From: Dehalococcoidia bacterium
GTDB taxonomy: Bacteria; Chloroflexota; Dehalococcoidia; SHYD01
Length of the DNA stretch: 64,000 bases
Reading direction: 5' to 3'
Assembly: GCA_965261835.1 (NCBI GenBank)
Contig: OZ253478.1
Location: forward strand, 2,337,267-2,401,266
The position numbers and the translations under genes are program-made. The notes beneath the pieces are model-generated. The model searched no databases. It worked only from the letters and a program-made list of their open reading frames with translations, and was not told the DNA's origin. Below are positions 7,223-40,250 of this stretch, one piece after another (the stretch's first letter is position 1; each line of letters starts with the position of its first letter).

Positions 7223-9187
7223 GTGGGCAGAGTGCCCCACTTCATGAGCCCAGCCAGAATTTGCCCTCTGCTCTTCCTGCTCTGCGTGTGGTCCCTAGCG
7301 TGTACGGAGGAGAAACCACAGGACCCGCTCCCGCCACTCAACTCAGCAGTTACCCCCGAGACTACTGAAACTACTGAGACCGAGACCACAACCGCACCTT
7401 CCACCCCACCCAACGTCGCCGCCGCGCTTCCCACCCCACCCAACGCCGATCGCTATGACATCATCCGGCGGCTTAAGCCAGCGTCACATCCTGCTCCCCG
7501 GCCCGCACAAACTACGCCCGCTCCGCGTCGCGTTGGAGACACGAGCACATTCAGCGTCACCGACGCTGAGGGTATCACCCGGCGCAACGTCCCCGCCACG
7601 CTCCGTTTGGTCACGGACCATGCGTACTGGTACCTAGACGACTCGATCAGAGTAGACATGGCTGCGCTCCAGTCCTCCGCCCAGGTCTACGAAGCAACCA
7701 GCTACCCCACCAATACCAAACACTTTGGCGACACTATCCGAGGCGGCTACGACGGCGACCCTCATCTCACCGTCTTCATCACCCGTTTCAGGGGCGCGGT
7801 CGGCTATTACAGCTCACCGGACGAGTACCCCAAAGCGATCCATCCCTTCAGCAACGAACGGCTGATGCTCTACATCAATGGCAATGCGCTCCCGCCCGGA
7901 AGCCGCGGGTTCAACTCAGTGGTTGCGCATGAACTGCAGCACGCCATCCATTGGCACGCCGACCCCAACGAAGACAGTTGGGTAAACGAGGGCTTGTCCG
8001 TCTTAGCGGAAGAATTCGGCGGTTTCCGTAGCAATTCTGCTCGCGCTTTCCAGTCCGCTACCAACGTGCAGCTCACCGACTGGGAAGATGCTCCCGGAAA
8101 CAACCGACCCCACTACGCTGCGGCCCACCTCTTCATGCGTTTCTTGGCGCAGCATTGGAGCAACGGCGGCGACTTGAGCGCGCTAGTAGCCGAACCGAAA
8201 GATGGCGTTGAGGGAGTGGATGCTTACCTGGCAAGACAAGGCTATCCTGAGCGTTTCCGTGATGTGTTCAAAGCATGGGTGGCCGCCAACTCCGGGGCGC
8301 GCCTCACTGGCCCCAAGCTGAGTTATCCAGACCGGCCGGTCACGGCAGCGGTAAGCCGTACGCTCACTACTGACACCACGTTCACCGACACGGTAAGGCA
8401 GTACGCCGCCAAGTATTTCGATATTCAAGCATCGAGCGGAGCCGCTACCATAACGCTCTCCGGCACGCCGGGCGCGCGGTTGCTACCCACCCAGGCATCC
8501 AGCGGCGTTGCTTTCTGGTGGGGCAACCGGGGCGATCAAATTGACAGCACACTCACGCGCGAGTTTGACCTAACCAACGCTCAAACGGCCAACTTACGGT
8601 TCAAGACCTGGTATGACATAGAAGAAGGCTGGGACTACGCCTACGTAGTTGCGTCTATCGATAGTGGTAATACTTGGCAAATCCTGCCGGGTAGTCATAC
8701 CACTGTAGAAAACCCAGTAGGCAACAGTTACGGTCCGGGCTATACCGGACACAGCGGGGGCGGGCGGGACCCGCAATGGGTACAGGAAACGATTGACCTG
8801 AGTCAGTATGTGGGGAAAAAGGTGCTGGTGCGCTTCGAGTACATAACAGACGATGCGGTAAACACTGACGGCTTCGCCATCGACGACATAGAAGTCCCCG
8901 AGATTGGGTTCCATGATGCTAACGAACAGGATAGCGGATGGACCGCACAGGGGTTTTACCGCACAGACAACCTGCTTCCCCAGGAGTTCCTAATCCAGGT
9001 GGTTGAACAGACGCCAAATGGCACGGCGGTGCTTAAAGACATGGAACTAAATGCCAACCACCAAGGTGAGCTACGAGTATGTTGCTTTGGTCAGGAGCTG
9101 GCTAAGGCAACGGTCATCGTGGCCGCCATAGCGCCTGTCACCACTCAACAAGCCCACTTTGAGATGGACATTCGCTTTTCGAACTGA
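7223..9187 (+). CDS. secreted lipoprotein, gluzincin-like zinc metallopeptidase (HExxH) with C-terminal beta-sandwich domain
   Basis: Signal peptide with lipobox SLAC (probable true start ATG 7244); Thr/Glu/Pro-rich low-complexity linker; HELQHAIH...NEGLS motif; C-terminal region resembles M6/immune-inhibitor-like accessory domain. Confidence 0.6.
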   Translation: MGRVPHFMSPARICPLLFLLCVWSLACTEEKPQDPLPPLNSAVTPETTETTETETTTAPSTPPNVAAALPTPPNADRYDIIRRLKPASHPAPRPAQTTPAPRRVGDTSTFSVTDAEGITRRNVPATLRLVTDHAYWYLDDSIRVDMAALQSSAQVYEATSYPTNTKHFGDTIRGGYDGDPHLTVFITRFRGAVGYYSSPDEYPKAIHPFSNERLMLYINGNALPPGSRGFNSVVAHELQHAIHWHADPNEDSWVNEGLSVLAEEFGGFRSNSARAFQSATNVQLTDWEDAPGNNRPHYAAAHLFMRFLAQHWSNGGDLSALVAEPKDGVEGVDAYLARQGYPERFRDVFKAWVAANSGARLTGPKLSYPDRPVTAAVSRTLTTDTTFTDTVRQYAAKYFDIQASSGAATITLSGTPGARLLPTQASSGVAFWWGNRGDQIDSTLTREFDLTNAQTANLRFKTWYDIEEGWDYAYVVASIDSGNTWQILPGSHTTVENPVGNSYGPGYTGHSGGGRDPQWVQETIDLSQYVGKKVLVRFEYITDDAVNTDGFAIDDIEVPEIGFHDANEQDSGWTAQGFYRTDNLLPQEFLIQVVEQTPNGTAVLKDMELNANHQGELRVCCFGQELAKATVIVAAIAPVTTQQAHFEMDIRFSN

Positions 9188-9275
9188 GCCGTACCTTCAG
9201 TCCCTCCGTGCGCTCTTGACACCTTCGCAGTATGGCTGTGTATGCTGATGCAGTTCCCACTTTGAAAGGCACCCT

Positions 9276-11095
<1,820 letters not shown>

Positions 11096-28798: not shown

Positions 28799-28875
28799 GG
28801 TGGGCGTAGCCGAGCGGTTAAGGCGCCAGGTTGTGGCCCTGGAGACCGAGGGTTCGAATCCCTCCGTCCACCCCA
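28799..28875 (+). tRNA. tRNA-His (anticodon GTG) with encoded G-1 and CCA
   Basis: Manual fold: 8-bp acceptor stem including G-1:C73, anticodon loop TTGTGGC, T-loop GGTTCGAATCC, 3' CCA. Confidence 0.9.
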
Positions 28876-29202: not shown

Positions 29203-29278
29203 GCGCCCGTAGCTCAACGGATAGAGCACCAGACTTCGGATCTGGGGGTTGGGGGTTCGAGTCCCTCCGGGCGTGCCA
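29203..29278 (+). tRNA. tRNA-Arg (anticodon TCG)
   Basis: Manual fold: acceptor GCGCCCG/CGGGCGT, D-arm GCTC..GAGC, anticodon loop CTTCGGA, T-arm GGGGGTTCGAGTCCCTC, CCA encoded. Confidence 0.85.
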
Positions 29279-31823: not shown

Positions 31824-34800
31824 ATGACGGGCCAGCTATTCACCGACTACTTTCTCACCGCCGGCATCAAGGCCACCGAGGAGTGGCGGGAGTCAGACAC
31901 CGCGTTTGCCGCCTTCCGGGCCACCCTCGGCGCGCGCTACCGGCAGTTCAGCAGCAACCAACAACCCAACGAAGCCACTACCGAGCAGGAGCTGATCCGC
32001 CCGGTCCTGGAGGCGCTGGGATGGACTGACCACCTGCCGCAGCAGGGCACAACCGGTAACGAGGACATCCCGGACAATCTCCTGTTCATCGATGCGGCGT
32101 CCAAGGACCGCGCCGCCGGTCGAGCCAACCCGCAAGAACGCTACCAGGACGCCGCGGTGGTCGAAGAGAGCAAGCAGTTCGGTCTGAAGCTAGACGCCCT
32201 TACCAAAGCCCCCGGACAACACAGCAAGACGCCACACAGCCAGATACTCCAATACCTCTCGACTGCCGAGATCGCGTCGGAGAGCCGGATCCGCTGGGGG
32301 TTCCTGACCAACGGCGGCGTGTGGCGGCTCTACGACCAACGCGCCCGCCCGCGCGCCACCGGCTACTTCGAAGCCGACCTCGGGAAGCTGCTCGACTCTG
32401 GCGACGCAGACGCCCTGCGCGCCTTCTACCTGCTGTTCCGCCGCGACTCGTTCACCCGCACCAAGGGGGCCACCGCCACCTTCCTCGTGCAGGCGCTGGC
32501 CGAGGGCCGCCGCTACGAGGAGCAGGTGGCGCGGAACCTCTCCAGCGTGGTCTTCGATCAGGTCTTCCCCCGGCTGGTAACCGCACTCGCCAGCACGCCA
32601 GGGGTAGCGCTGCCGGAGGCGCGCGATGCCGCGCTGATCTTCCTCTACCGGCTGCTGTTCGTGCTTTACGCCGAGGACCGCGGGCTGCTCCCCGTCAACG
32701 ACGAGCGTTACGAAGACTACGGCCTGCGCAAGCCGGTACGCGATGATATCGCCCACAAGCAGACCACTGGCGCGCCCTTCTCGTCCGTGGCCACCGCCTA
32801 CTACGACCACCTGATGCAGCTGTGGCGACTCATCGACAAGGGCGACGCGTCCATCGGCCTGCCGCCCTACAACGGCGGCCTGTTCGCCGACGAGGCCGCC
32901 CCGCTGCTGGCGCGGGCCCGCCTGCCCGACGCGGTGGTCGCCCCGATCGTCTACGACCTTAGCCACGCTGAAACCGCCGACGGGCGCCGCTTCGTCAACT
33001 ACCGCGACATGTCGGTCCAGCAGCTCGGCTCGATCTACGAGCGGCTGCTGGAGCAGGAGCCGGTCCGCGCCGACGACGGCGGGATCGTCATCCGCCCCAA
33101 CAGCTACGCCCGCAAGGACAGCGGTAGCTTCTACACGCCGCAGGAGCTGGTCGACCTGATCGTCGACCGGACGCTGAAGCCGCTGGCGGAGGAGCGGCTG
33201 CGAGCATTCGAGCAGAAGGCCGCCGCGCTGAAGCACGACCACCGGCCCAAGTCCGAACGGCTGGCCGATCTGCGCAAGCTGGACCCCGCCGAGGCTGTCC
33301 TCGACCTCAAGGTGCTCGACCCCGCCATGGGCAGCGGCCACTTCCTGGTCACCGCCGTCGACTTTCTGTCCGACTACATCGCCGATCTGGTCGAGTCCGT
33401 GCCGGCGGTGCCGGACTGGCTGGATGGCGCGGGCGAGTATGAATCGCCGTTGGTGGGGCGGGTGGCCGCGATTCGGGACGACATTCGCGGCCGGGCCCGG
33501 CAGGCGGGATGGGTGATAGACGAGGAGGCCCAACTCACCGACCAAGCCATCATCCGCCGCATGGTGCTCAAGCGCTGCATCTACGGCGTGGACAAGAACC
33601 CCCTCACCGTGGAGCTGGCCAAGGTCTCGCTCTGGCTCCACAGCTTCACCGTCGGCGCGGCGCTCTCTTTCCTCGACCACCACCTCCGCTGCGGCGACTC
33701 CCTGGTCGGTTTGCGGGTGCGGGAGGCCAGGGACGAGTTGCTCCGGTTTGGCCCCATGTTTACTTCGAGCGCCGTCGCGGGGGCGGAAGCCGCCGCGGCC
33801 GGAATGCAGCGCATCGAGGAGATGTCCGACGCCGACATCTCGGAGGTAGAGCAGTCCGCCGCATTGTTCCGAGGCGTCGAGCAGACTACTGCTGACCTAC
33901 GCGGCCTGCTGGACTTCCTCACCGGCTTGCACTGGCACACCGCGGGGATGAAATCGAAGGAGCGCGCGGCCATCGAGGGGCACATCGCCGTGGCGCTGGG
34001 GGCGGACCAAGCGAACGGCTTGCAGCTACTGGCGCACGGCCCGGCGCATGGCCCAAACGAGAACGCCACCACCGCGCCCGCGGACGGCTCCTCACCCTAC
34101 GCTGCGCTGTGGCAGAACGCCACCGGCATCGCCGACCGTGAAACGTTCCTGCACTGGGAGGCGGCCTTCCCCGGCGTCTGGCAACGGTGGCAGGAAGCGC
34201 AACCCCAAGGCGGCTTCGACGCCGTCATCGGTAACCCGCCATGGGACCACATTGAACAGCCAGAGGTAGAGTGGTTCGCCACTCGTTCGCCTGACATAGC
34301 CCTGGCGCCGACCGCGGCTGCCCGCAAGACCTACATACAGCGGCTGCGCAACGCCGGGGCGCCACTGGCCGCCGAGTTCGACGCCGCCAAGGCGCAGGCC
34401 GATGACCTGGGCCAACTGGTGCGCGCGTCCGGCCATTACCCCCTGCTGAGCGGCGGCCGCATCAACCTCTACTCCCTGTTTGTCGAGCGCGCCATGGGGC
34501 TTGTCAAGCCGGACGGATTCGTCGGGCTGCTCACGCCATCGGGCATCTACGCCGACAAGACCGCCGCCGACTTCTTCAAGTCCATCTCAACCAGCGGGCG
34601 GGTAGCTGGGATATTCGATTTCGAGAATCGCCGCTCCGGAATGAGGCTACCGCACTTCTTCCCTGATGTCGACTCAAGGTTCAAGTTTTGCGCCCTGATA
34701 TTCGGCGGGGAGGAGCGACGATTTGATGAGACCGCGTGCGCCTTCTTCCTCCACGACACCGCGACCATCGAAGACCCCGACCGCTGTTTCCCGCTGGCGC

Positions 34801-35873
34801 CGGCGGACTTTGCCAGGGTGAACCCCAACACCGCCACCGCGCCGATCTTCCGCACCTGCCGCGACGCCGACATCACCCGCGGCATCTACGAGCGGCATCC
34901 GGTGCTGGTGGACCGCTCCGGGGGTGACGAGCGCCGCGCCTGGCCGGTCAAGTTTATGCAGGGGCTATTCAATATGACTTCAGACTCCCACCTGTTCCGG
35001 ACCGCGGCCCAGCTCGAAGCTGCGGGCTTCTACCCGGTCCAGGGCAACCGCTGGAAGAAGGGCGAGGAGACCTACTTGCCGCTGTACCAGGGCCGGATGA
35101 TCCGGCACTTCGACCACCGCGCCAACTCGGTCCGAGTCAACCCTGAGAACACGCACAATCCCTACCTGAGCCAGGAGGTCAGCGCAGCGCAGCACGCGGA
35201 TCCCAGCTTTCTGCCACATACTCAATACTGGGTGCCGGCCGTCGAGGTGGAGTCGGCTTTGCCCGAAAGTCGCGGGTACACGCTAGCGTTCCGTGACATT
35301 ACCAATCCTACCAACATGAGAACGATGATCGCTTCCATCGTTCCAGCGGTAGGTTTTGGGCACACAGCTCCCCTACTTATCGGAGACGACACCCTGGCTG
35401 CCACGTGTCTCGTGGCGAATCTGAATGCCCTATGTCTGGACTTCGTTACGAGACTAAAGGCCCAAGGCACCCATATGAACTGGTTCATCGTCGAGCAACT
35501 CCCCGTCATCGCGCCCGACGGCTACGACCGGCGGTTCGGGGAAAAGACGGCCCGTGAGATCGTCCGTGACCACGTGCTCCGCCTCAGCTACACCGCGCAC
35601 GACATGGCGCCGTTCGCCCGCGACCTCGGCTACGACGGCCCGCCGTTCATCTGGGACGAGGAGGCGCGCCGCCACCTGCGGGCCCGGCTCGACGCGCTGT
35701 ACTTCCACCTCTACGGGCTGAGCAAGGACGACGCGGGCTACATCCTCGGCACCTTCCCCATCGTGCAGCGGCAAGACGAGGCGGCGTTCGGGCGCTACCG
35801 CACGCGCGAGCTAGTGCTGGCATACATGAACGCCCTCGCCGCCGGCGACACCGAGACCGTGATGGCGGTGTAA
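31824..35873 (+). CDS. single-polypeptide type IIG/IIL restriction-modification enzyme (MmeI-like; nuclease + N6-adenine DNA methyltransferase + target-recognition region)
   Basis: N-terminal HsdR-N-like PD-(D/E)xK domain (IPDNLLF...VVEESKQF...QILQYL...GFLTNGGVWRLY); MmeI-like helical region (LLFVLYAEDRGLLP, PYNGGLFADE); MTase motif I KVLDPAMGSGHFLV and motif IV VIGNPPWDHIEQ; ~450-aa C-terminal region with no Walker A (GxxxxGK[ST]) motif seen. Confidence 0.75.
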   Translation: MTGQLFTDYFLTAGIKATEEWRESDTAFAAFRATLGARYRQFSSNQQPNEATTEQELIRPVLEALGWTDHLPQQGTTGNEDIPDNLLFIDAASKDRAAGRANPQERYQDAAVVEESKQFGLKLDALTKAPGQHSKTPHSQILQYLSTAEIASESRIRWGFLTNGGVWRLYDQRARPRATGYFEADLGKLLDSGDADALRAFYLLFRRDSFTRTKGATATFLVQALAEGRRYEEQVARNLSSVVFDQVFPRLVTALASTPGVALPEARDAALIFLYRLLFVLYAEDRGLLPVNDERYEDYGLRKPVRDDIAHKQTTGAPFSSVATAYYDHLMQLWRLIDKGDASIGLPPYNGGLFADEAAPLLARARLPDAVVAPIVYDLSHAETADGRRFVNYRDMSVQQLGSIYERLLEQEPVRADDGGIVIRPNSYARKDSGSFYTPQELVDLIVDRTLKPLAEERLRAFEQKAAALKHDHRPKSERLADLRKLDPAEAVLDLKVLDPAMGSGHFLVTAVDFLSDYIADLVESVPAVPDWLDGAGEYESPLVGRVAAIRDDIRGRARQAGWVIDEEAQLTDQAIIRRMVLKRCIYGVDKNPLTVELAKVSLWLHSFTVGAALSFLDHHLRCGDSLVGLRVREARDELLRFGPMFTSSAVAGAEAAAAGMQRIEEMSDADISEVEQSAALFRGVEQTTADLRGLLDFLTGLHWHTAGMKSKERAAIEGHIAVALGADQANGLQLLAHGPAHGPNENATTAPADGSSPYAALWQNATGIADRETFLHWEAAFPGVWQRWQEAQPQGGFDAVIGNPPWDHIEQPEVEWFATRSPDIALAPTAAARKTYIQRLRNAGAPLAAEFDAAKAQADDLGQLVRASGHYPLLSGGRINLYSLFVERAMGLVKPDGFVGLLTPSGIYADKTAADFFKSISTSGRVAGIFDFENRRSGMRLPHFFPDVDSRFKFCALIFGGEERRFDETACAFFLHDTATIEDPDRCFPLAPADFARVNPNTATAPIFRTCRDADITRGIYERHPVLVDRSGGDERRAWPVKFMQGLFNMTSDSHLFRTAAQLEAAGFYPVQGNRWKKGEETYLPLYQGRMIRHFDHRANSVRVNPENTHNPYLSQEVSAAQHADPSFLPHTQYWVPAVEVESALPESRGYTLAFRDITNPTNMRTMIASIVPAVGFGHTAPLLIGDDTLAATCLVANLNALCLDFVTRLKAQGTHMNWFIVEQLPVIAPDGYDRRFGEKTAREIVRDHVLRLSYTAHDMAPFARDLGYDGPPFIWDEEARRHLRARLDALYFHLYGLSKDDAGYILGTFPIVQRQDEAAFGRYRTRELVLAYMNALAAGDTETVMAV

Positions 35874-35878
35874 GTCTA

Positions 35879-36035
35879 CCCCCGTCATTGCGAGGAGCCT
35901 GCGACGTGGCAATCCGGGGTGGGGTGGCCGGCCGGTCGCGGGGAGTGTCCCCTGCCCCCGCTTCCCCAAGCGCCCCGCCCCCACCCCAGATTGCTTCGCT
36001 GCGGCTCGCAATGACGGGAAGCGGGGGGAGCCGCG
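35879..36035. repeat. ~155-bp long imperfect palindrome (MITE/REP-like element), copy A
   Basis: Terminal inverted repeats CCGTCATTGCGAGG ... CCTCGCAATGACGG; internal complementary arms CAATCCGGGGTGGGG / CCCCACCCCAGATTG; ~95% identical to copy B. Confidence 0.8.
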
Positions 36036-36289
36036 CGTGGGCGTCGAATATATCGCCGAAGGTGGAACCCGGCCAGGCAGCGTCCTTGCAGGCTTGAAGC
36101 GCGTCGCAACCTGCAGAGTGCATGGCAAGTTGCAACTGGCTGGGTTCGCCGGTAGTATCGTCCGCATCAGGCAGGAATGATAGTGCGGGCTGACCGACGA
36201 ATTATGAGTTCCGCATGGGGCTATCAGCTATGGCACCCGATGCAGTAACGGTGTTGCTGAATTTGTAATCGACCGAAAGGAGCGCTGGT

Positions 36290-36772
36290 ATGGCGGGAGG
36301 TCAACATGGGTTTACTTTCACCATCTTTGGACTCTTTGGCGCCGCAATAGTATTCGGAATCCCGTGGCTCGCTGGGAAGATTCTGCCTTTTATGGAATCC
36401 CCCAGCTTGGGCAGCCCGACAGGCTGGGTATTGTGCGGGGTCGGCGGCGTTGCCGGGGTTATTCTAGCCCAGATCGCGCTCACCGGCTGGCACAAAACGT
36501 GGCGGTCATGGGCCACATATGCCCTCCTTGTGGGTTCCATCTATGGAATTTTCGCCATCGCAGGGTGGTACATTGAGGCCAATCCAGACTCGGCCCTGCT
36601 GGAGACAATTACAGAACTGGGCCAAAATTTGTCTTTAGAGCCGGAGAATTTAGTCCTCATATTGTTTGTCGGTATTCCCATAGTGTTTATCGGTATTCCC
36701 ATATTGCTGTCCGTTATATTGTTCGCCCTTGTACTCTGGAAGGGGGACAGCAGCGGGAAATCTCGTCGGTAA
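36290..36772 (+). CDS. small polytopic membrane protein (4-5 TM), lower-GC cargo gene between the two palindromic repeats
   Basis: AAGGAG 7 nt upstream of ATG; Gly/Ile/Phe-rich TM segments; local GC clearly below flanks. Confidence 0.55.
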   Translation: MAGGQHGFTFTIFGLFGAAIVFGIPWLAGKILPFMESPSLGSPTGWVLCGVGGVAGVILAQIALTGWHKTWRSWATYALLVGSIYGIFAIAGWYIEANPDSALLETITELGQNLSLEPENLVLILFVGIPIVFIGIPILLSVILFALVLWKGDSSGKSRR

Positions 36773-36786
36773 CGCGAGGGGGTGGC

Positions 36787-36940
36787 TCTCCCCCCGTCAT
36801 TGCGAGGAGCCCGCGACGTGGCAATCCGGGGTGGGGTGGCCGGCCGGTCGCGGGGAGTGTCCCCTGCCCCCGCTTCCCCACGCGCCCCTCCCCCGCCCCA
36901 GATTGCTTCGCTGCGGCTCGCAATGACGAGAAGCGGGGAG
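36787..36940. repeat. ~155-bp long imperfect palindrome (MITE/REP-like element), copy B
   Basis: Near-identical to copy A over ~150 bp, same orientation, 908 bp downstream. Confidence 0.8.
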
Positions 36941-36996
36941 CCGAGTACCTTGGGCAGCGGCATCTGGTCCGCCGTGTCCGAGTTGAGGATATGGTG

Positions 36997-37833
36997 TTAC
37001 TGGCTATTCCCCTCGCTGCTATTCGCCACCAAATAGTTCACGAAGGCCGAGCAGGCTACAACCATATAGCGAGCTTCAGGGAGCCCCACTTGCGGCGCTT
37101 CCTTTATCCCATGGCGGACGCCATCCTCGTCACTCGTCCAGTTGTACATGTTGTTCCACGCTTGCTTGAGCTGAGGGTGGCCTTCTAGCTTCTGTAGACC
37201 CTTCGCGATATCGGCCTTCGAATCTCCTGCCGCTACCTGGACGGCTGATTCGACTGCCGATATCGACTCTTTGATAGCGTTGCGGAAATCGGGGGTGTTA
37301 CGGTCACTCAGAAGTGTAAGAGCTTGCCTGATATGCTGCGATGCAGCGTGAAATAGGTCCGACAACGAGGCAGCCGCATCAACCGCAGCTAGCTCTGCAT
37401 TATTGGTAATGGGGACTATCGCATTACCGACAAATCTGTAGGCGGACCCTTCCCTGCTTAGCATGTCGTTCGCATCGCTGACGTCCTCTTCGACTTCTCG
37501 CTTGCGCAGAAGATACTCCAAGACAGTGTAGACCTCATCCCAGTTTGCTTCTAAGTACCAGTCCCGAAGGACGTCTATCGCGGTATCAGGGAAACTCGAC
37601 GCAAAATCGGCATTTGGCAATTCGTCAGATGGCAATTCGTCAGAAAGCTTACCCACTATTTCGGTCCATACACTTTTTACTAACCCGTACCCATGAGAAA
37701 AACGCCCCATGACGAAATATCGATCTCGCAGGAAGTTCCAGATTGCATTCCTGAGCCGATCGTCCATCTCTTCAAATTGATGGAGCTGTGACCGGTCGAG
37801 CTTGTAGCCGTGACGTTCGGAGAAGGTTGCCAT
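36997..37833 (-). CDS. hypothetical protein, putative abortive-infection (Abi)/HEPN-like defence protein
   Basis: N-terminus MATFSERHGY...LRNAIWNFL recalls Abi-family N-terminal domains; C-terminal helical region FRNAIKESISAVESAV resembles degenerate HEPN-type motifs; lower GC than surroundings; ATG 37833 preferred (TTG 37851 alternative). Confidence 0.45.
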   Translation of the reverse strand: MATFSERHGYKLDRSQLHQFEEMDDRLRNAIWNFLRDRYFVMGRFSHGYGLVKSVWTEIVGKLSDELPSDELPNADFASSFPDTAIDVLRDWYLEANWDEVYTVLEYLLRKREVEEDVSDANDMLSREGSAYRFVGNAIVPITNNAELAAVDAAASLSDLFHAASQHIRQALTLLSDRNTPDFRNAIKESISAVESAVQVAAGDSKADIAKGLQKLEGHPQLKQAWNNMYNWTSDEDGVRHGIKEAPQVGLPEARYMVVACSAFVNYLVANSSEGNSQ

Positions 37834-37989
37834 GAAGCTATTATGCCACAATCTATGGCCGTTAAATCAGATGGAGAATCGTCACGCTCCATGACAACTG
37901 CCCAGTGTGCGCTCACCCAATTGGGGTACGCTACAATAACAGGCACACGAACAGCCGCACGCGGCCCGGTTAGGTGAGGGCAGGGCGCC

Positions 37990-39615
37990 ATGAATAACGC
38001 AGAACTTATCGTCAAGATGCTCGAGGCGGCAGGCGTGCGCTGGGTCTTCGGCATCCCCAGCGGCCCGGTGCTGCCCCTGATCGAAGCGCTGCGGCACAGC
38101 TCGATCCGCTACGTGCTGACCGCCAACGAAACCTCGGCCGGGTTCATGGCGCACACCGTGGGCGCCATGAGCGGTGTGCCGGGCGTCTGCGTGTCCACGT
38201 TGGGCCCCGGCGCCACCAACCTTGCCACCGGGGTCGGCGCGGCGTGGCTGGACCGGGCGCCGGTGATCGCCATCACCTGCAACGTGGAGACGGCTTGGCT
38301 CGACCGGCGGGTTCAGATGCGCATCGACCACCACGCGCTATTCGCGCCGCTGACCAAGGCGAGTCTCCCGCTGCGGCGCGACCGGGTAGCAGAGCGGTTG
38401 GGGCAGGCGCTGGCCCTGTGCCGGGCCGAACCGCCCGGTCCGGTGCACCTCGACCTGCCGGAGGACGTGGGCCTGGCGCCTGCCTCCGAGACCACTGCGC
38501 CGCCCGACGCCGCGGTGGCGCCGGCGGCGGCGCTGCCGCCCATCGGCCCGGACGTGCTGGCTGCGCTGGCCGCCGCATTGCAGCGCAGCCAACGGCCGCT
38601 GCTGGTGGGCGGGCTGGCCTTGACCAGAACCAAGAGCCGCCAGCGCTTACTGGAGTTCATCGAACGTCAACACCTGCCCTTTGCCCTCACGCTTCACGCC
38701 AAAGGGTTCCTGCCTGAGAGCCATCCCAATTACGTGGGCGTCATTGGCCGGGCGCGCCGCAGCGACGTCGCGGCCTTCGTGCGCCAGGCCGATCTCATCA
38801 TCGGCATGGGTTATGACCCCATCGAGATCAACTACGAAGAATGGGTGGGCGCGATCCCCGTCATGCACCTGAGCACTGAGATTGCCGACGTCGCCGCGCC
38901 GGTCCGTACCCTGCTGAACGCCGGGGGCGACCTGGAAGCCGCCTGGCCGGCCTTGGCAGCCTTGCCGCCGCAGCAACATGCGTGGACCGTTGGGGAATTC
39001 ACCGCGCACCGGCGCGCGCTGGAGCGCGCGTTGCGGCCGGAGCGGCCGGAGCGGCCCGTGAACCATGGCCTCGCTCCCCATGACGTGCTCGATGCGCTCC
39101 GGGCGCGGCTGCCTACGGACGCGATCCTGACCTACGACGTGGGGGCCCATACCCACCAGATCGCTACCCAATGGCGCACCGACGAACCCCACACCTGCTT
39201 CTCCACCAATGGCTGGTCGTCTATGGGGTTCGGGCTGCCGGCCACCTACGCGGCCAAGCTCGTCCACCCCAATCGCGTGGTGGTAGGCGTGGTGGGCGAT
39301 GGGTGCTTCCAGATGACGGTGGGCGAGGTCAGCGTGGCAAAACGCCTGGGTTTGGCCGCGCCGGTGGTGGTGCTGAACGACGGCTGGCTGGGCCTGCTGA
39401 AAGTGAAGCAGGAACGCAAGGGCTATGGGCTGTCCGGGGTGGACATCGGCGAGCCAGCGGTGCCGCCGTCCGACTATTTTGGCGTGCCATGCCGCGCCGT
39501 CCGCAATGCAGACGAGCTGACGGCGGCCCTGGATTGGGCGCTCACCCTCGAAGGCCCCAGCGTCATTGAGGCGTTGGTCGACGTGGCGCCCTACTCCACC
39601 ACCGTCTACGACTGA
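37990..39615 (+). CDS. thiamine-pyrophosphate-dependent enzyme, acetolactate-synthase-large-subunit-like
   Basis: N-terminal TPP-pyrimidine domain (GVRWVFGIPSGPVLPL), central domain, C-terminal TPP-binding motif GDGCFQM...N; 541 aa. Confidence 0.8.
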   Translation: MNNAELIVKMLEAAGVRWVFGIPSGPVLPLIEALRHSSIRYVLTANETSAGFMAHTVGAMSGVPGVCVSTLGPGATNLATGVGAAWLDRAPVIAITCNVETAWLDRRVQMRIDHHALFAPLTKASLPLRRDRVAERLGQALALCRAEPPGPVHLDLPEDVGLAPASETTAPPDAAVAPAAALPPIGPDVLAALAAALQRSQRPLLVGGLALTRTKSRQRLLEFIERQHLPFALTLHAKGFLPESHPNYVGVIGRARRSDVAAFVRQADLIIGMGYDPIEINYEEWVGAIPVMHLSTEIADVAAPVRTLLNAGGDLEAAWPALAALPPQQHAWTVGEFTAHRRALERALRPERPERPVNHGLAPHDVLDALRARLPTDAILTYDVGAHTHQIATQWRTDEPHTCFSTNGWSSMGFGLPATYAAKLVHPNRVVVGVVGDGCFQMTVGEVSVAKRLGLAAPVVVLNDGWLGLLKVKQERKGYGLSGVDIGEPAVPPSDYFGVPCRAVRNADELTAALDWALTLEGPSVIEALVDVAPYSTTVYD

Positions 39616-39691: not shown

Positions 39692-39883
39692 TTAGGTAGG
39701 GGTACCGGAAAGCTCGCCCGCGGTGATGTAGGCTTCCCCCAACGCCTTGCAGACCTGCACGGTGCCCTGAAAACGGATTTCGTACTCGTATTGCTGGCCG
39801 CCGCCGCTCACCTGCTTGGCAATCTCGTAGATGTCCGCTTTGCCCTTGGGGCCTTCTACGGAACTGACTAACTCCTCCGACAT
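39692..39883 (-). CDS. small hypothetical protein (63 aa), possible partner of the HicB-like gene
   Basis: Strong AGGAGG SD 9 nt upstream of ATG; 43 bp downstream of the HicB-like gene on the same strand; no HicA GSH motif. Confidence 0.45.
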   Translation of the reverse strand: MSEELVSSVEGPKGKADIYEIAKQVSGGGQQYEYEIRFQGTVQVCKALGEAYITAGELSGTPT

Positions 39884-39926: not shown

Positions 39927-40250
39927 TTAGCGGGCGTCGGTCAACTTTCCGTTATCCACCAGCCACTTGCTGAACTCCAACTGCTCGCGGTTGAGCGCAG
40001 GCATGGCCGACTTGAGCGGAGGCCGCGGCACCGGTACCGGCCGGCCCTGCTCCAAGAGCTGCATGATGATTTGCACCCGCAGCTGCTCCAACTGCTCGAT
40101 GATCTCCACCGCGGATATCCCCTCCACCACGCAGCCCGGCAGCTCGGGCATCGAGGCGCGGCGCATCCACTCGCCGTTGTCCGCCTCAAACGACTCAACC
40201 GACAATATATAGGGGATAGCCATGTATTCTTCTATTGTCATGCTCGCCAT
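39927..40250 (-). CDS. HicB-like (UPF0150) antitoxin-family protein
   Basis: Perfect AAGGAGG SD before ATG at 40250; sequence SVESFEADNGEWMRRASMPELPGCVVEGISAVEIIEQLEQLRVQII matches the HicB N-terminal RNase-H-like antitoxin domain. Confidence 0.65.
   Translation of the reverse strand: MASMTIEEYMAIPYILSVESFEADNGEWMRRASMPELPGCVVEGISAVEIIEQLEQLRVQIIMQLLEQGRPVPVPRPPLKSAMPALNREQLEFSKWLVDNGKLTDAR

Follow-up and report, generated by a model that had tools for sequence, protein, structure and literature searches.

The two genes that follow a type IIG-like restriction-modification (RM) gene in the 64,000-nt stretch of DNA analysed here (the window) were most probably, with a probability of about 0.7, acquired independently of each other as cargo of a slot prone to recombination. 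The larger gene would then be a stand-alone AbiJ-NTD4/HEPN defence candidate and not one half of a two-gene system. It is already recognised by standard tools (Pfam, PADLOC and PGAP naming), and the smaller gene encodes an orphan membrane protein.

Both open reading frames (ORFs) announced in a preliminary description of the region were found. The membrane-protein ORF occupies positions 36290-36772 of the plus strand (160 aa). The mechanically called ORF on the minus strand extends over positions 36997-37851, opening at a TTG codon at 37851 and encoding 284 aa. However, a database protein (P0001) that is 100% identical to the AbiJ-like protein of the window is 278 aa long, and the family alignment opens at M-x-x-FSER; consequently, the ATG at 37833 ('MATFSERHGY') is most likely the true start, and the gene, assigned to PADLOC candidate PDC-S32, spans positions 36997-37833 of the minus strand. 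The two genes are convergent and separated by a gap of 224 nt. The low GC content ascribed to this region was borne out, with values of 0.49-0.57 over positions 36000-38000 and 0.62-0.76 on both sides. The membrane gene (GC 0.53, GC3 0.60) and the AbiJ-like gene (GC 0.52, GC3 0.59) depart from the neighbouring RM, acyl-CoA dehydrogenase and TPP-enzyme genes, whose GC3 is 0.83-0.87, and therefore both apparently represent acquired DNA. A scan of the region for sigma-70 promoters found none, the sigma-70 model being uninformative for a Chloroflexota genome.

The RM gene of the same island (positions 31824-35873, plus strand) encodes a protein of 1349 aa that matches Eco57I (71.6 bits, 1e-19) and N6_Mtase (34 bits) in Pfam, as well as the PADLOC models REase_MTase_IIG (1e-66, residues 4-410 against the N-terminal region of the model) and DrmMI (6e-86); its matches to MmeI_N, MmeI_hel and MmeI_Mtase are weak. 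Taking the type IIG layout as an N-terminal nuclease, a gamma-class N6-adenine methylase and a C-terminal specificity region, the gene is classified from these matches as type IIG, with a predicted nuclease, methylase and specificity region in one polypeptide. The matches to Eco57I, N6_Mtase and REase_MTase_IIG thus uphold the upstream type IIG gene of the preliminary description.

A palindromic, MITE/REP-like repeat of 152 nt begins directly after the RM stop codon (copy 1, positions 35875-36026, plus strand) and recurs between the two convergent genes (copy 2, positions 36787-36938, plus strand). The two copies are 96% identical, flank the membrane ORF on either side, carry the inverted termini CGTCATTGCGAG and fold into a hairpin of about 140 nt (-98.8 kcal/mol, z -4.25); no Rfam family matches them. 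The earlier picture of genes interleaved with MITE-like repeats thus holds in a limited sense, these two copies being the only ones in the window. Seven other loci carrying the membrane gene were examined. Two of them (L003 and L002) share synteny with the window over the acyl-CoA dehydrogenases, the RM gene, the membrane gene and the TPP enzyme. Two others (L088 and L089) consist of short contigs whose membrane alleles are near-identical (96% over the aligned part), and the remaining three (L001, L086 and L087) place the membrane gene in unrelated contexts that contain no RM gene. L003 and L002 have one copy of the repeat each, located after the RM stop codon (94% and 72% identity, respectively), and no copy was detected in the 88 other loci examined. 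Copy 2 is absent from the corresponding position in L003, L002 and L088; it probably acts as a bidirectional terminator or insulator.

Copy 2 and the AbiJ-like gene together form the window's content of a variable cargo slot (positions 36780-37901). The flanks of this slot are 92-98% identical in nucleotide sequence between the window and both L003 and L002, whereas the slot itself is exchanged for unrelated DNA in each of these two relatives. In L003 it contains a low-GC orphan ORF (258/292 aa) with no match in Pfam, PADLOC or PHROG, in L002 it has no long ORF, and in L088 the arrangement is different again. The slots of the relatives have only some 260 nt in common, made of RM-gene fragments. 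The AbiJ-like gene is one interchangeable occupant of a variable cargo slot, and the difference in slot contents between near-identical genomes supports the view of such candidates as swappable defence cargo.

According to the preliminary description, neither protein could be placed in a known family. This stands for the membrane protein, but the larger protein matches Pfam AbiJ_NTD4 (PF18863) with 99.6 bits against a gathering cutoff of 34 (residues 9-161 of the 284-aa ORF, model positions 2-150 of 152), in agreement with the Abi-type N-terminus proposed earlier. It also matches the PADLOC PDC-S32 model PDLC04997 (E 1e-82, 276 bits, residues 4-278 against positions 4-281 of 285) and a second PADLOC model, PDLC04996 (E 2.5e-66), and on these profile matches it is assigned as a full-length member of the PDC-S32 candidate family. 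The AbiJ models of PADLOC itself failed to detect the window protein, and NCBIfam and PHROGs scans gave no match either. A word-index search recovered 1127 relatives; PF18863 was found in all but one of the 120 relatives listed and in all 34 that were aligned. A scan of one genome per species located at least 586 AbiJ-NTD4 loci, which span Dehalococcoidia, Bacteroidota, Proteobacteria, Cyanobacteria, Firmicutes, Acidobacteriota and methanogenic archaea, the closest relatives in that scan belonging to Dehalococcoidia (54-65% identity). Furthermore, relatives are encoded in 26 plasmid records and four phage records, and all 15 plasmid records listed bear the RefSeq name 'AbiJ-NTD4 domain-containing protein'.

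The AbiJ_NTD4 domain is an alpha+beta domain covering residues 3-155 of the 278-aa protein (positions 37369-37827, minus strand). Its N-terminus carries an invariant F-S-E-R-x-G motif, and the residues F4, S5, Q19, L27, W32, W98, Y102, N122, Y132 and E147 are invariant in the family alignment. No solved structural relative of this domain was found; a PDB profile search with the family alignment as query returned only insignificant matches (SAM-AMP lyase, E 0.2; WYL1, E 0.7). By analogy with related proteins, the domain would serve as a sensor or regulatory module. The C-terminal domain (residues ~159-275, positions 37009-37359, minus strand) adopts the four-helix up-and-down fold of HEPN proteins. 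Its best structural matches include non-catalytic or minimal HEPNs, such as those of sacsin and MtlR, and the HEPN toxins LsoA, AbiA, AbiV, HepS and Csm6 follow at lower Z.

The HEPN-like C-terminus described earlier was thus recovered as a fold, but the block FRNAIKESISAVESAV, which had been singled out there and is strongly conserved, does not hold the position that corresponds to the HEPN catalytic His; this lies instead in 'SDEDGVRHG'. Read from the sequence, the variant active-site motif S-D-E-D-G-V-R-H (residues 234-241) is encoded at positions 37111-37134 of the minus strand, and the most conserved HEPN block, P-D-F-R-N-A-I-K-E-S-I-S-A-V-E (residues 181-195), at positions 37249-37293 of the same strand; the latter is the block singled out in the preliminary description. 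The C-terminal residues that never vary in the family alignment are R178, P181, D182, N185, K188, E189, E195, S234, G238, R240 and H241, and R184 is conserved at 90% or more. All 104 full-length homologues share S-x3-G-[IVLM]-R-H, and 99 of them share RN..KE. No positionally conserved copy of the canonical HEPN motif Rx4-6H exists among these 104 proteins; any R-x4-6-H in the last 130 residues occurs in 22 of them, at inconsistent positions. In the window protein, the residues four to six positions ahead of H241 are D, E and D, which places it outside the Rx4-6H pattern of the catalytic branch. Rather, an invariant Arg stands at position -1 from the His, and an alignment anchored on the His against the S. 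aureus protein SadR (motif RNEYGDAH) places an invariant Ser at the canonical Arg position. The loop that bears the motif is modelled with low confidence (pLDDT 59-64, residues 231-250).

The window protein gave no match to Pfam Abi_C (PF14355) even at E <= 10. Matches were obtained in 11 of the 34 relatives, with listed scores (12.9-21.2 bits) below the gathering cutoff of 24. In the relatives with listed scores the alignments start at R-H-G and run through the last helix, covering profile positions 48-82 of 83, and leave the upstream part of the profile unaligned. We infer that H241 is homologous to the catalytic His and that the Arg has moved. The R184-N185 pair, located where helix 2 begins and within the block singled out earlier, may stand in for the missing groups, and the presence of S-x3-G-[IV]-R-H in place of Rx4-6H may entail a catalysis differing in detail. 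By extension, the whole AbiJ-NTD4 family could possess a rewired HEPN site, with the Arg adjacent to the His on its N-terminal side and helix 2 contributing an RN pair. Such a site, if real, would constitute a catalytic arrangement distinct from the Rx4-6H paradigm.

Many HEPN domains without Rx4-6H are non-catalytic, and the HEPN domain of the window protein might accordingly be inactive, either exerting a binding or regulatory function, as do the HEPNs of sacsin, MtlR and GlnE, or persisting as the decaying remnant of a toxin. The missing canonical motif and the presence of sacsin and MtlR among the top structural matches fit this possibility, and our literature search found no experimental work on the NTD4 subfamily, nor any paper naming PDC-S32 or testing an NTD4 protein. 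Moreover, the non-canonical motif weakens the extrapolation of an RNase mechanism from relatives, and the RNase assumption for the entire family of at least 586 loci rests on this atypical active site. However, R240, H241, S234, G238 and RN..KE are invariant or almost so down to 35% identity and across phyla, a strictness that is typical of an active site and argues against decay. The His also aligns with the catalytic His region of Abi_C, and the family has been nominated as embedded in defence systems and is found on plasmids and phages. We therefore consider an inactive domain unlikely, and keep to the interpretation of the protein as a stand-alone defence candidate.

The smaller gene is a real gene, since its ORF is open in all seven genomes, whereas with substitutions placed at random, at the divergence observed, it would stay free of stop codons in only 0.8-8% of trials per lineage. 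Searches of Pfam, NCBIfam, PADLOC and PHROGs yielded no family for the encoded protein. Its relatives are scarce: a word-index search found only eight in 5.8 billion clustered proteins, and an exhaustive profile search of 1.84 billion representatives only seven proteins at E <= 0.001. Four transmembrane (TM) helices and a short connecting helix are suggested by hydropathy together with a weak AF2 model (pLDDT 62, pTM 0.38). A tandem duplication of 21 nt (ILFVGIP / IVFIGIP; positions 36658-36699, plus strand) lengthens the last TM helix; it is found only in the lineage of the window and L003, and a seven-residue gap takes its place in L002, L001, L086 and L087.

Among the window, L003 and L002, the dS of the membrane gene (0.02-0.09) resembles that of the flanking genes (0.04-0.12), while its dN is raised about 13-fold. 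Between these close genomes its dN/dS therefore reaches 2.2-3.8, against 0.09-0.18 in the flanks, with an excess of non-synonymous changes at p = 0.004-0.04; distant pairs give a dN/dS of 0.6-1.0. Between the window and L003, 17 of the 20 amino-acid changes fall within residues 114-160, and 17 of the 24 nucleotide changes occur at first codon positions, as I/L/V/F/M swaps. This pattern fits diversifying selection and fits relaxed constraint on a hydrophobic helix as well. A second reading frame was rejected as the cause of the first-position excess, as the two minus-strand ORFs have the same wobble phase as the plus-strand ORF. A diversity-generating retroelement was likewise rejected, given that the substitutions are not adenine-specific and no reverse transcriptase was seen among the genes examined around the locus.

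The membrane orphan could be an undescribed determinant of defence or exclusion that evolves under diversifying selection and accompanies the type IIG enzyme in this Dehalococcoidia lineage. A related reading makes the membrane protein a fast-evolving exclusion or immunity factor working with the RM enzyme and the AbiJ-like gene incidental. In favour of that reading, the RM gene adjoins the membrane gene in the window and in the syntenic genomes L003 and L002, dN/dS is elevated at flank-like dS, and the ORF has been maintained against chance expectation. Nevertheless, the three genomes form a single syntenic clade and count as one evolutionary event, no RM gene lies beside the membrane gene in L001, L086 and L087, and the strong hairpin of repeat copy 1 stands between the RM stop codon and the membrane gene. 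In addition, the many I/L/V/F swaps in the TM helix could equally be produced by relaxed constraint, and the membrane protein matches no defence or phage family. An exclusion factor coupled to the RM enzyme thus appears quite improbable. The best explanation is that the membrane gene arrived separately and stayed beside the RM gene in one small clade.

The distribution of the two cargo genes speaks for their independence. Searches by tblastn detected AbiJ relatives in none of the seven other membrane-gene loci, including those whose membrane proteins are 88-96% identical, and relatives of the membrane protein in none of the 86 other AbiJ-NTD4 loci (85 distinct, as L005 and L006 represent the same site). 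The latter include the closest loci, at 65-73% identity (L004, L005, L090 and L091), and the contexts of the AbiJ-NTD4 gene differ among these four. No neighbour family recurs in 82 AbiJ-NTD4 loci except in near-identical, syntenic Acinetobacter genomes, and the small multi-TM ORFs present within 1.2 kb of the AbiJ-NTD4 gene in 10 of the 82 loci are mutually dissimilar. We conclude with confidence that the AbiJ-NTD4 gene is a single-gene unit of solitary organisation, without an obligatory partner.

The preliminary description had envisaged the two genes as an undescribed two-component abortive-infection module and had called for a search for their co-occurrence in other defence islands, naming a lack of conservation of the pair elsewhere as evidence to the contrary. 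That search recovered the pair in this window alone, and the hypothesis fails for this reason. A module of membrane effector and AbiJ-like HEPN sensor/nuclease is thus extremely improbable: although the genes are adjacent, convergent, almost equal in their atypical GC3 and located beside an RM gene, neither accompanies relatives of the other in the other loci searched, the multi-TM ORFs near other AbiJ loci share no resemblance, and a strong hairpin repeat splits the convergent pair, which is not co-transcribed.

For the AbiJ-like protein as a stand-alone defence candidate, a mode of action can be proposed by analogy with related HEPN defence proteins. The NTD4 domain would sense a phage component and would hold the C-terminal domain inactive in uninfected cells. 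Upon infection, the HEPN domain, probably as a dimer, would cleave RNA. RNA cleavage would then arrest the cell and abort the infection, so that the protein would back up the RM enzyme as a second defence.

The value of these results is mostly negative, in that the locus does not merit pursuit as a new abortive-infection system of two genes. With it, PDC-S32 gains a Dehalococcoidia example that adjoins a type IIG RM enzyme, and two modest leads emerge, namely the HEPN motif with its shifted Arg and the rapidly evolving membrane orphan. An orphan with a dN/dS above 1 next to an RM gene is a type of gene that homology-based defence finders miss. That at least one of the two leads holds true in a way that matters functionally, the membrane orphan as a defence or exclusion determinant or the AbiJ-NTD4 family as a case of rewired HEPN catalysis, seems to us doubtful.

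PDC-S32 belongs to a set of 145 phage defence candidates that were nominated as embedded in RM, BREX or DISARM systems (Payne et al. 2024, bioRxiv 10.1101/2024.01.29.577857). The window gene is likewise solitary and adjoins an RM gene, which fits the logic of a nomination as 'embedded in or adjacent to' such systems; no structural difference separates its product from PDC-S32, membership being the label of a candidate family. AbiJ-NTD4 was defined as an alpha+beta domain of ~160 aa fused to an AbiJ-type HEPN, and such N-terminal domains were proposed to sense phage components and to keep a suicidal HEPN RNase in check (Anantharaman et al. 2013, PMC3710099). The window protein has the same architecture, with an alpha+beta N-terminal domain of ~155 aa followed by a C-terminal HEPN fold, but its HEPN domain falls below the Abi_C threshold and carries S-x3-G-[IV]-R-H instead of the R-N-x(3-5)-H of Abi_C.

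The nearest experimental precedent for the window protein is SadR of S. aureus, an Abi_C AbiJ-type HEPN protein that breaks down ssRNA and total RNA and protects against phages as well as plasmids; mutation of R225, N226 or H232 in its RNEYGDAH motif abolishes both RNA degradation and defence, and the survey in the same paper found NTD4 in only three of 2815 Abi_C proteins (PMC13590631). Lactococcal AbiJ is without an established mechanism, and its escape mutants map to phage ssDNA-annealing proteins (PMC13064643). Both SadR and lactococcal AbiJ (Abi-859) are, like the window protein, single polypeptides of ~270-280 aa with an accessory N-terminus and a C-terminal HEPN, and those two are anti-phage proteins. 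Their N-terminal domains, however, differ from NTD4, and R225 and N226 of SadR have no counterpart at the aligned positions of the window protein. The minimal HEPN toxins of HEPN-MNT and type III/RnlA-like toxin-antitoxin systems (TT1696, AF0298, SO_3166, AbiV and LsoA) are each paired with a separate antitoxin, be it an MNT protein, an RNA or RnlB/Dmd. In contrast to these toxins, AbiJ-NTD4 loci have no conserved neighbour gene, and therefore any inhibition of the HEPN domain would come from within the protein itself, through its N-terminal domain.

The membrane orphan, a 160-aa protein gene with four predicted TM segments (window 36290-36772, plus strand), exhibits a dN/dS of 2.2-3.8 when the window is compared with the syntenic loci L003 and L002. 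In the same genomes, the genes flanking it display dN/dS values of 0.09-0.18 at a similar dS. The changes in the membrane orphan are concentrated in the last TM helix and, within codons, at the first position; despite the high dN/dS, the ORF is open in seven genomes. Within the last TM helix lies a 21-nt tandem duplication (ILFVGIP/IVFIGIP; window 36658-36699), which is limited to the lineage formed by the window and L003.

The membrane gene is flanked by repeated material. A 152-nt palindromic repeat, predicted to fold into a hairpin of approximately 140 nt and matching no Rfam family, is found at window positions 35875-36026 and 36787-36938; its six-frame translation yields spurious ORFs, such as the minus-strand '...IASRSEAIWGGGGA...PRIATS.APRNDGG'. 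Downstream of the membrane gene in L003 (8556-8751), in L002 (8568-8674) and in L088 (762-895), a short contig carrying a near-identical allele of that gene, there are short copies of two segments of the type IIG-like restriction-modification (RM) gene (window 32268-32329 and 35780-35870), and at this position the window has the 36787-36938 copy of the 152-nt repeat. Since direct repeats of material from the RM 3' end and the repeat bracket the membrane gene in every genome, these findings suggest that the gene was inserted here by recombination. In the slot where the window holds the AbiJ-like gene, L003 carries a 258/292-aa ORF (8820-9698, plus strand) with a GC content of 44%; it showed no match in Pfam, PADLOC or PHROG, and it could represent a further unrecognised defence candidate.

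Further downstream, two small minus-strand ORFs of 63 aa (window 39692-39883) and 107 aa (window 39927-40250), neither of which has a Pfam match, were also called in L002 and L003. A 107-aa minus-strand gene immediately follows the membrane gene in L088 and may correspond to the 107-aa ORF of the window. L002 and L003 contain an additional 0.7-0.9 kb, absent from the window, between the TPP gene and the small ORFs, and a Fic fragment is located within this additional DNA in L002. On the other side, the RM gene is preceded at a distance of about 2.5-3 kb by two plus-strand tRNA genes (window 28800-28872 and 29203-29275), which lie ahead of the acyl-CoA dehydrogenase pair.

The RM gene is intact in the window, unlike its orthologues in L003 (3539-7583), split across frames near residue 126-130, and L002 (3676-7725), split across frames into three or more pieces. 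Either pseudogene formation or long-read errors at low coverage (L003 is a 2x contig) could account for the splits. A stretch of approximately 370 nt (window 35122-35491; RM residues about 1100-1222) does not align with L003, the remaining RM gene being ~96% identical. Judging from the alignment, this patch may be a swapped target-recognition region, in which case specificity would differ between otherwise near-identical RM enzymes.

In the AbiJ-like protein, F4, S5, R7 and G9 of the 'FSERHGY' stretch are invariant or nearly so across phyla; residues 1-10 (window 37804-37833, minus strand) are disordered in the model (pLDDT < 50), and this conserved N-terminal stretch may serve as a peptide for interaction or autoinhibition. 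Helix 2 of the AbiJ-NTD4 family contains an invariant R-N-x2-K-E block (window codons 37249-37293, minus strand), and S-x3-G-[IV]-R-H (window codons 37111-37134, minus strand) is present in all 104 full-length AbiJ-NTD4 relatives (104/104). Together, the two motifs may constitute a rewired HEPN active site; at the place of S-x3-G-[IV]-R-H, Abi_C/SadR proteins instead carry R-N-x(3-5)-H.
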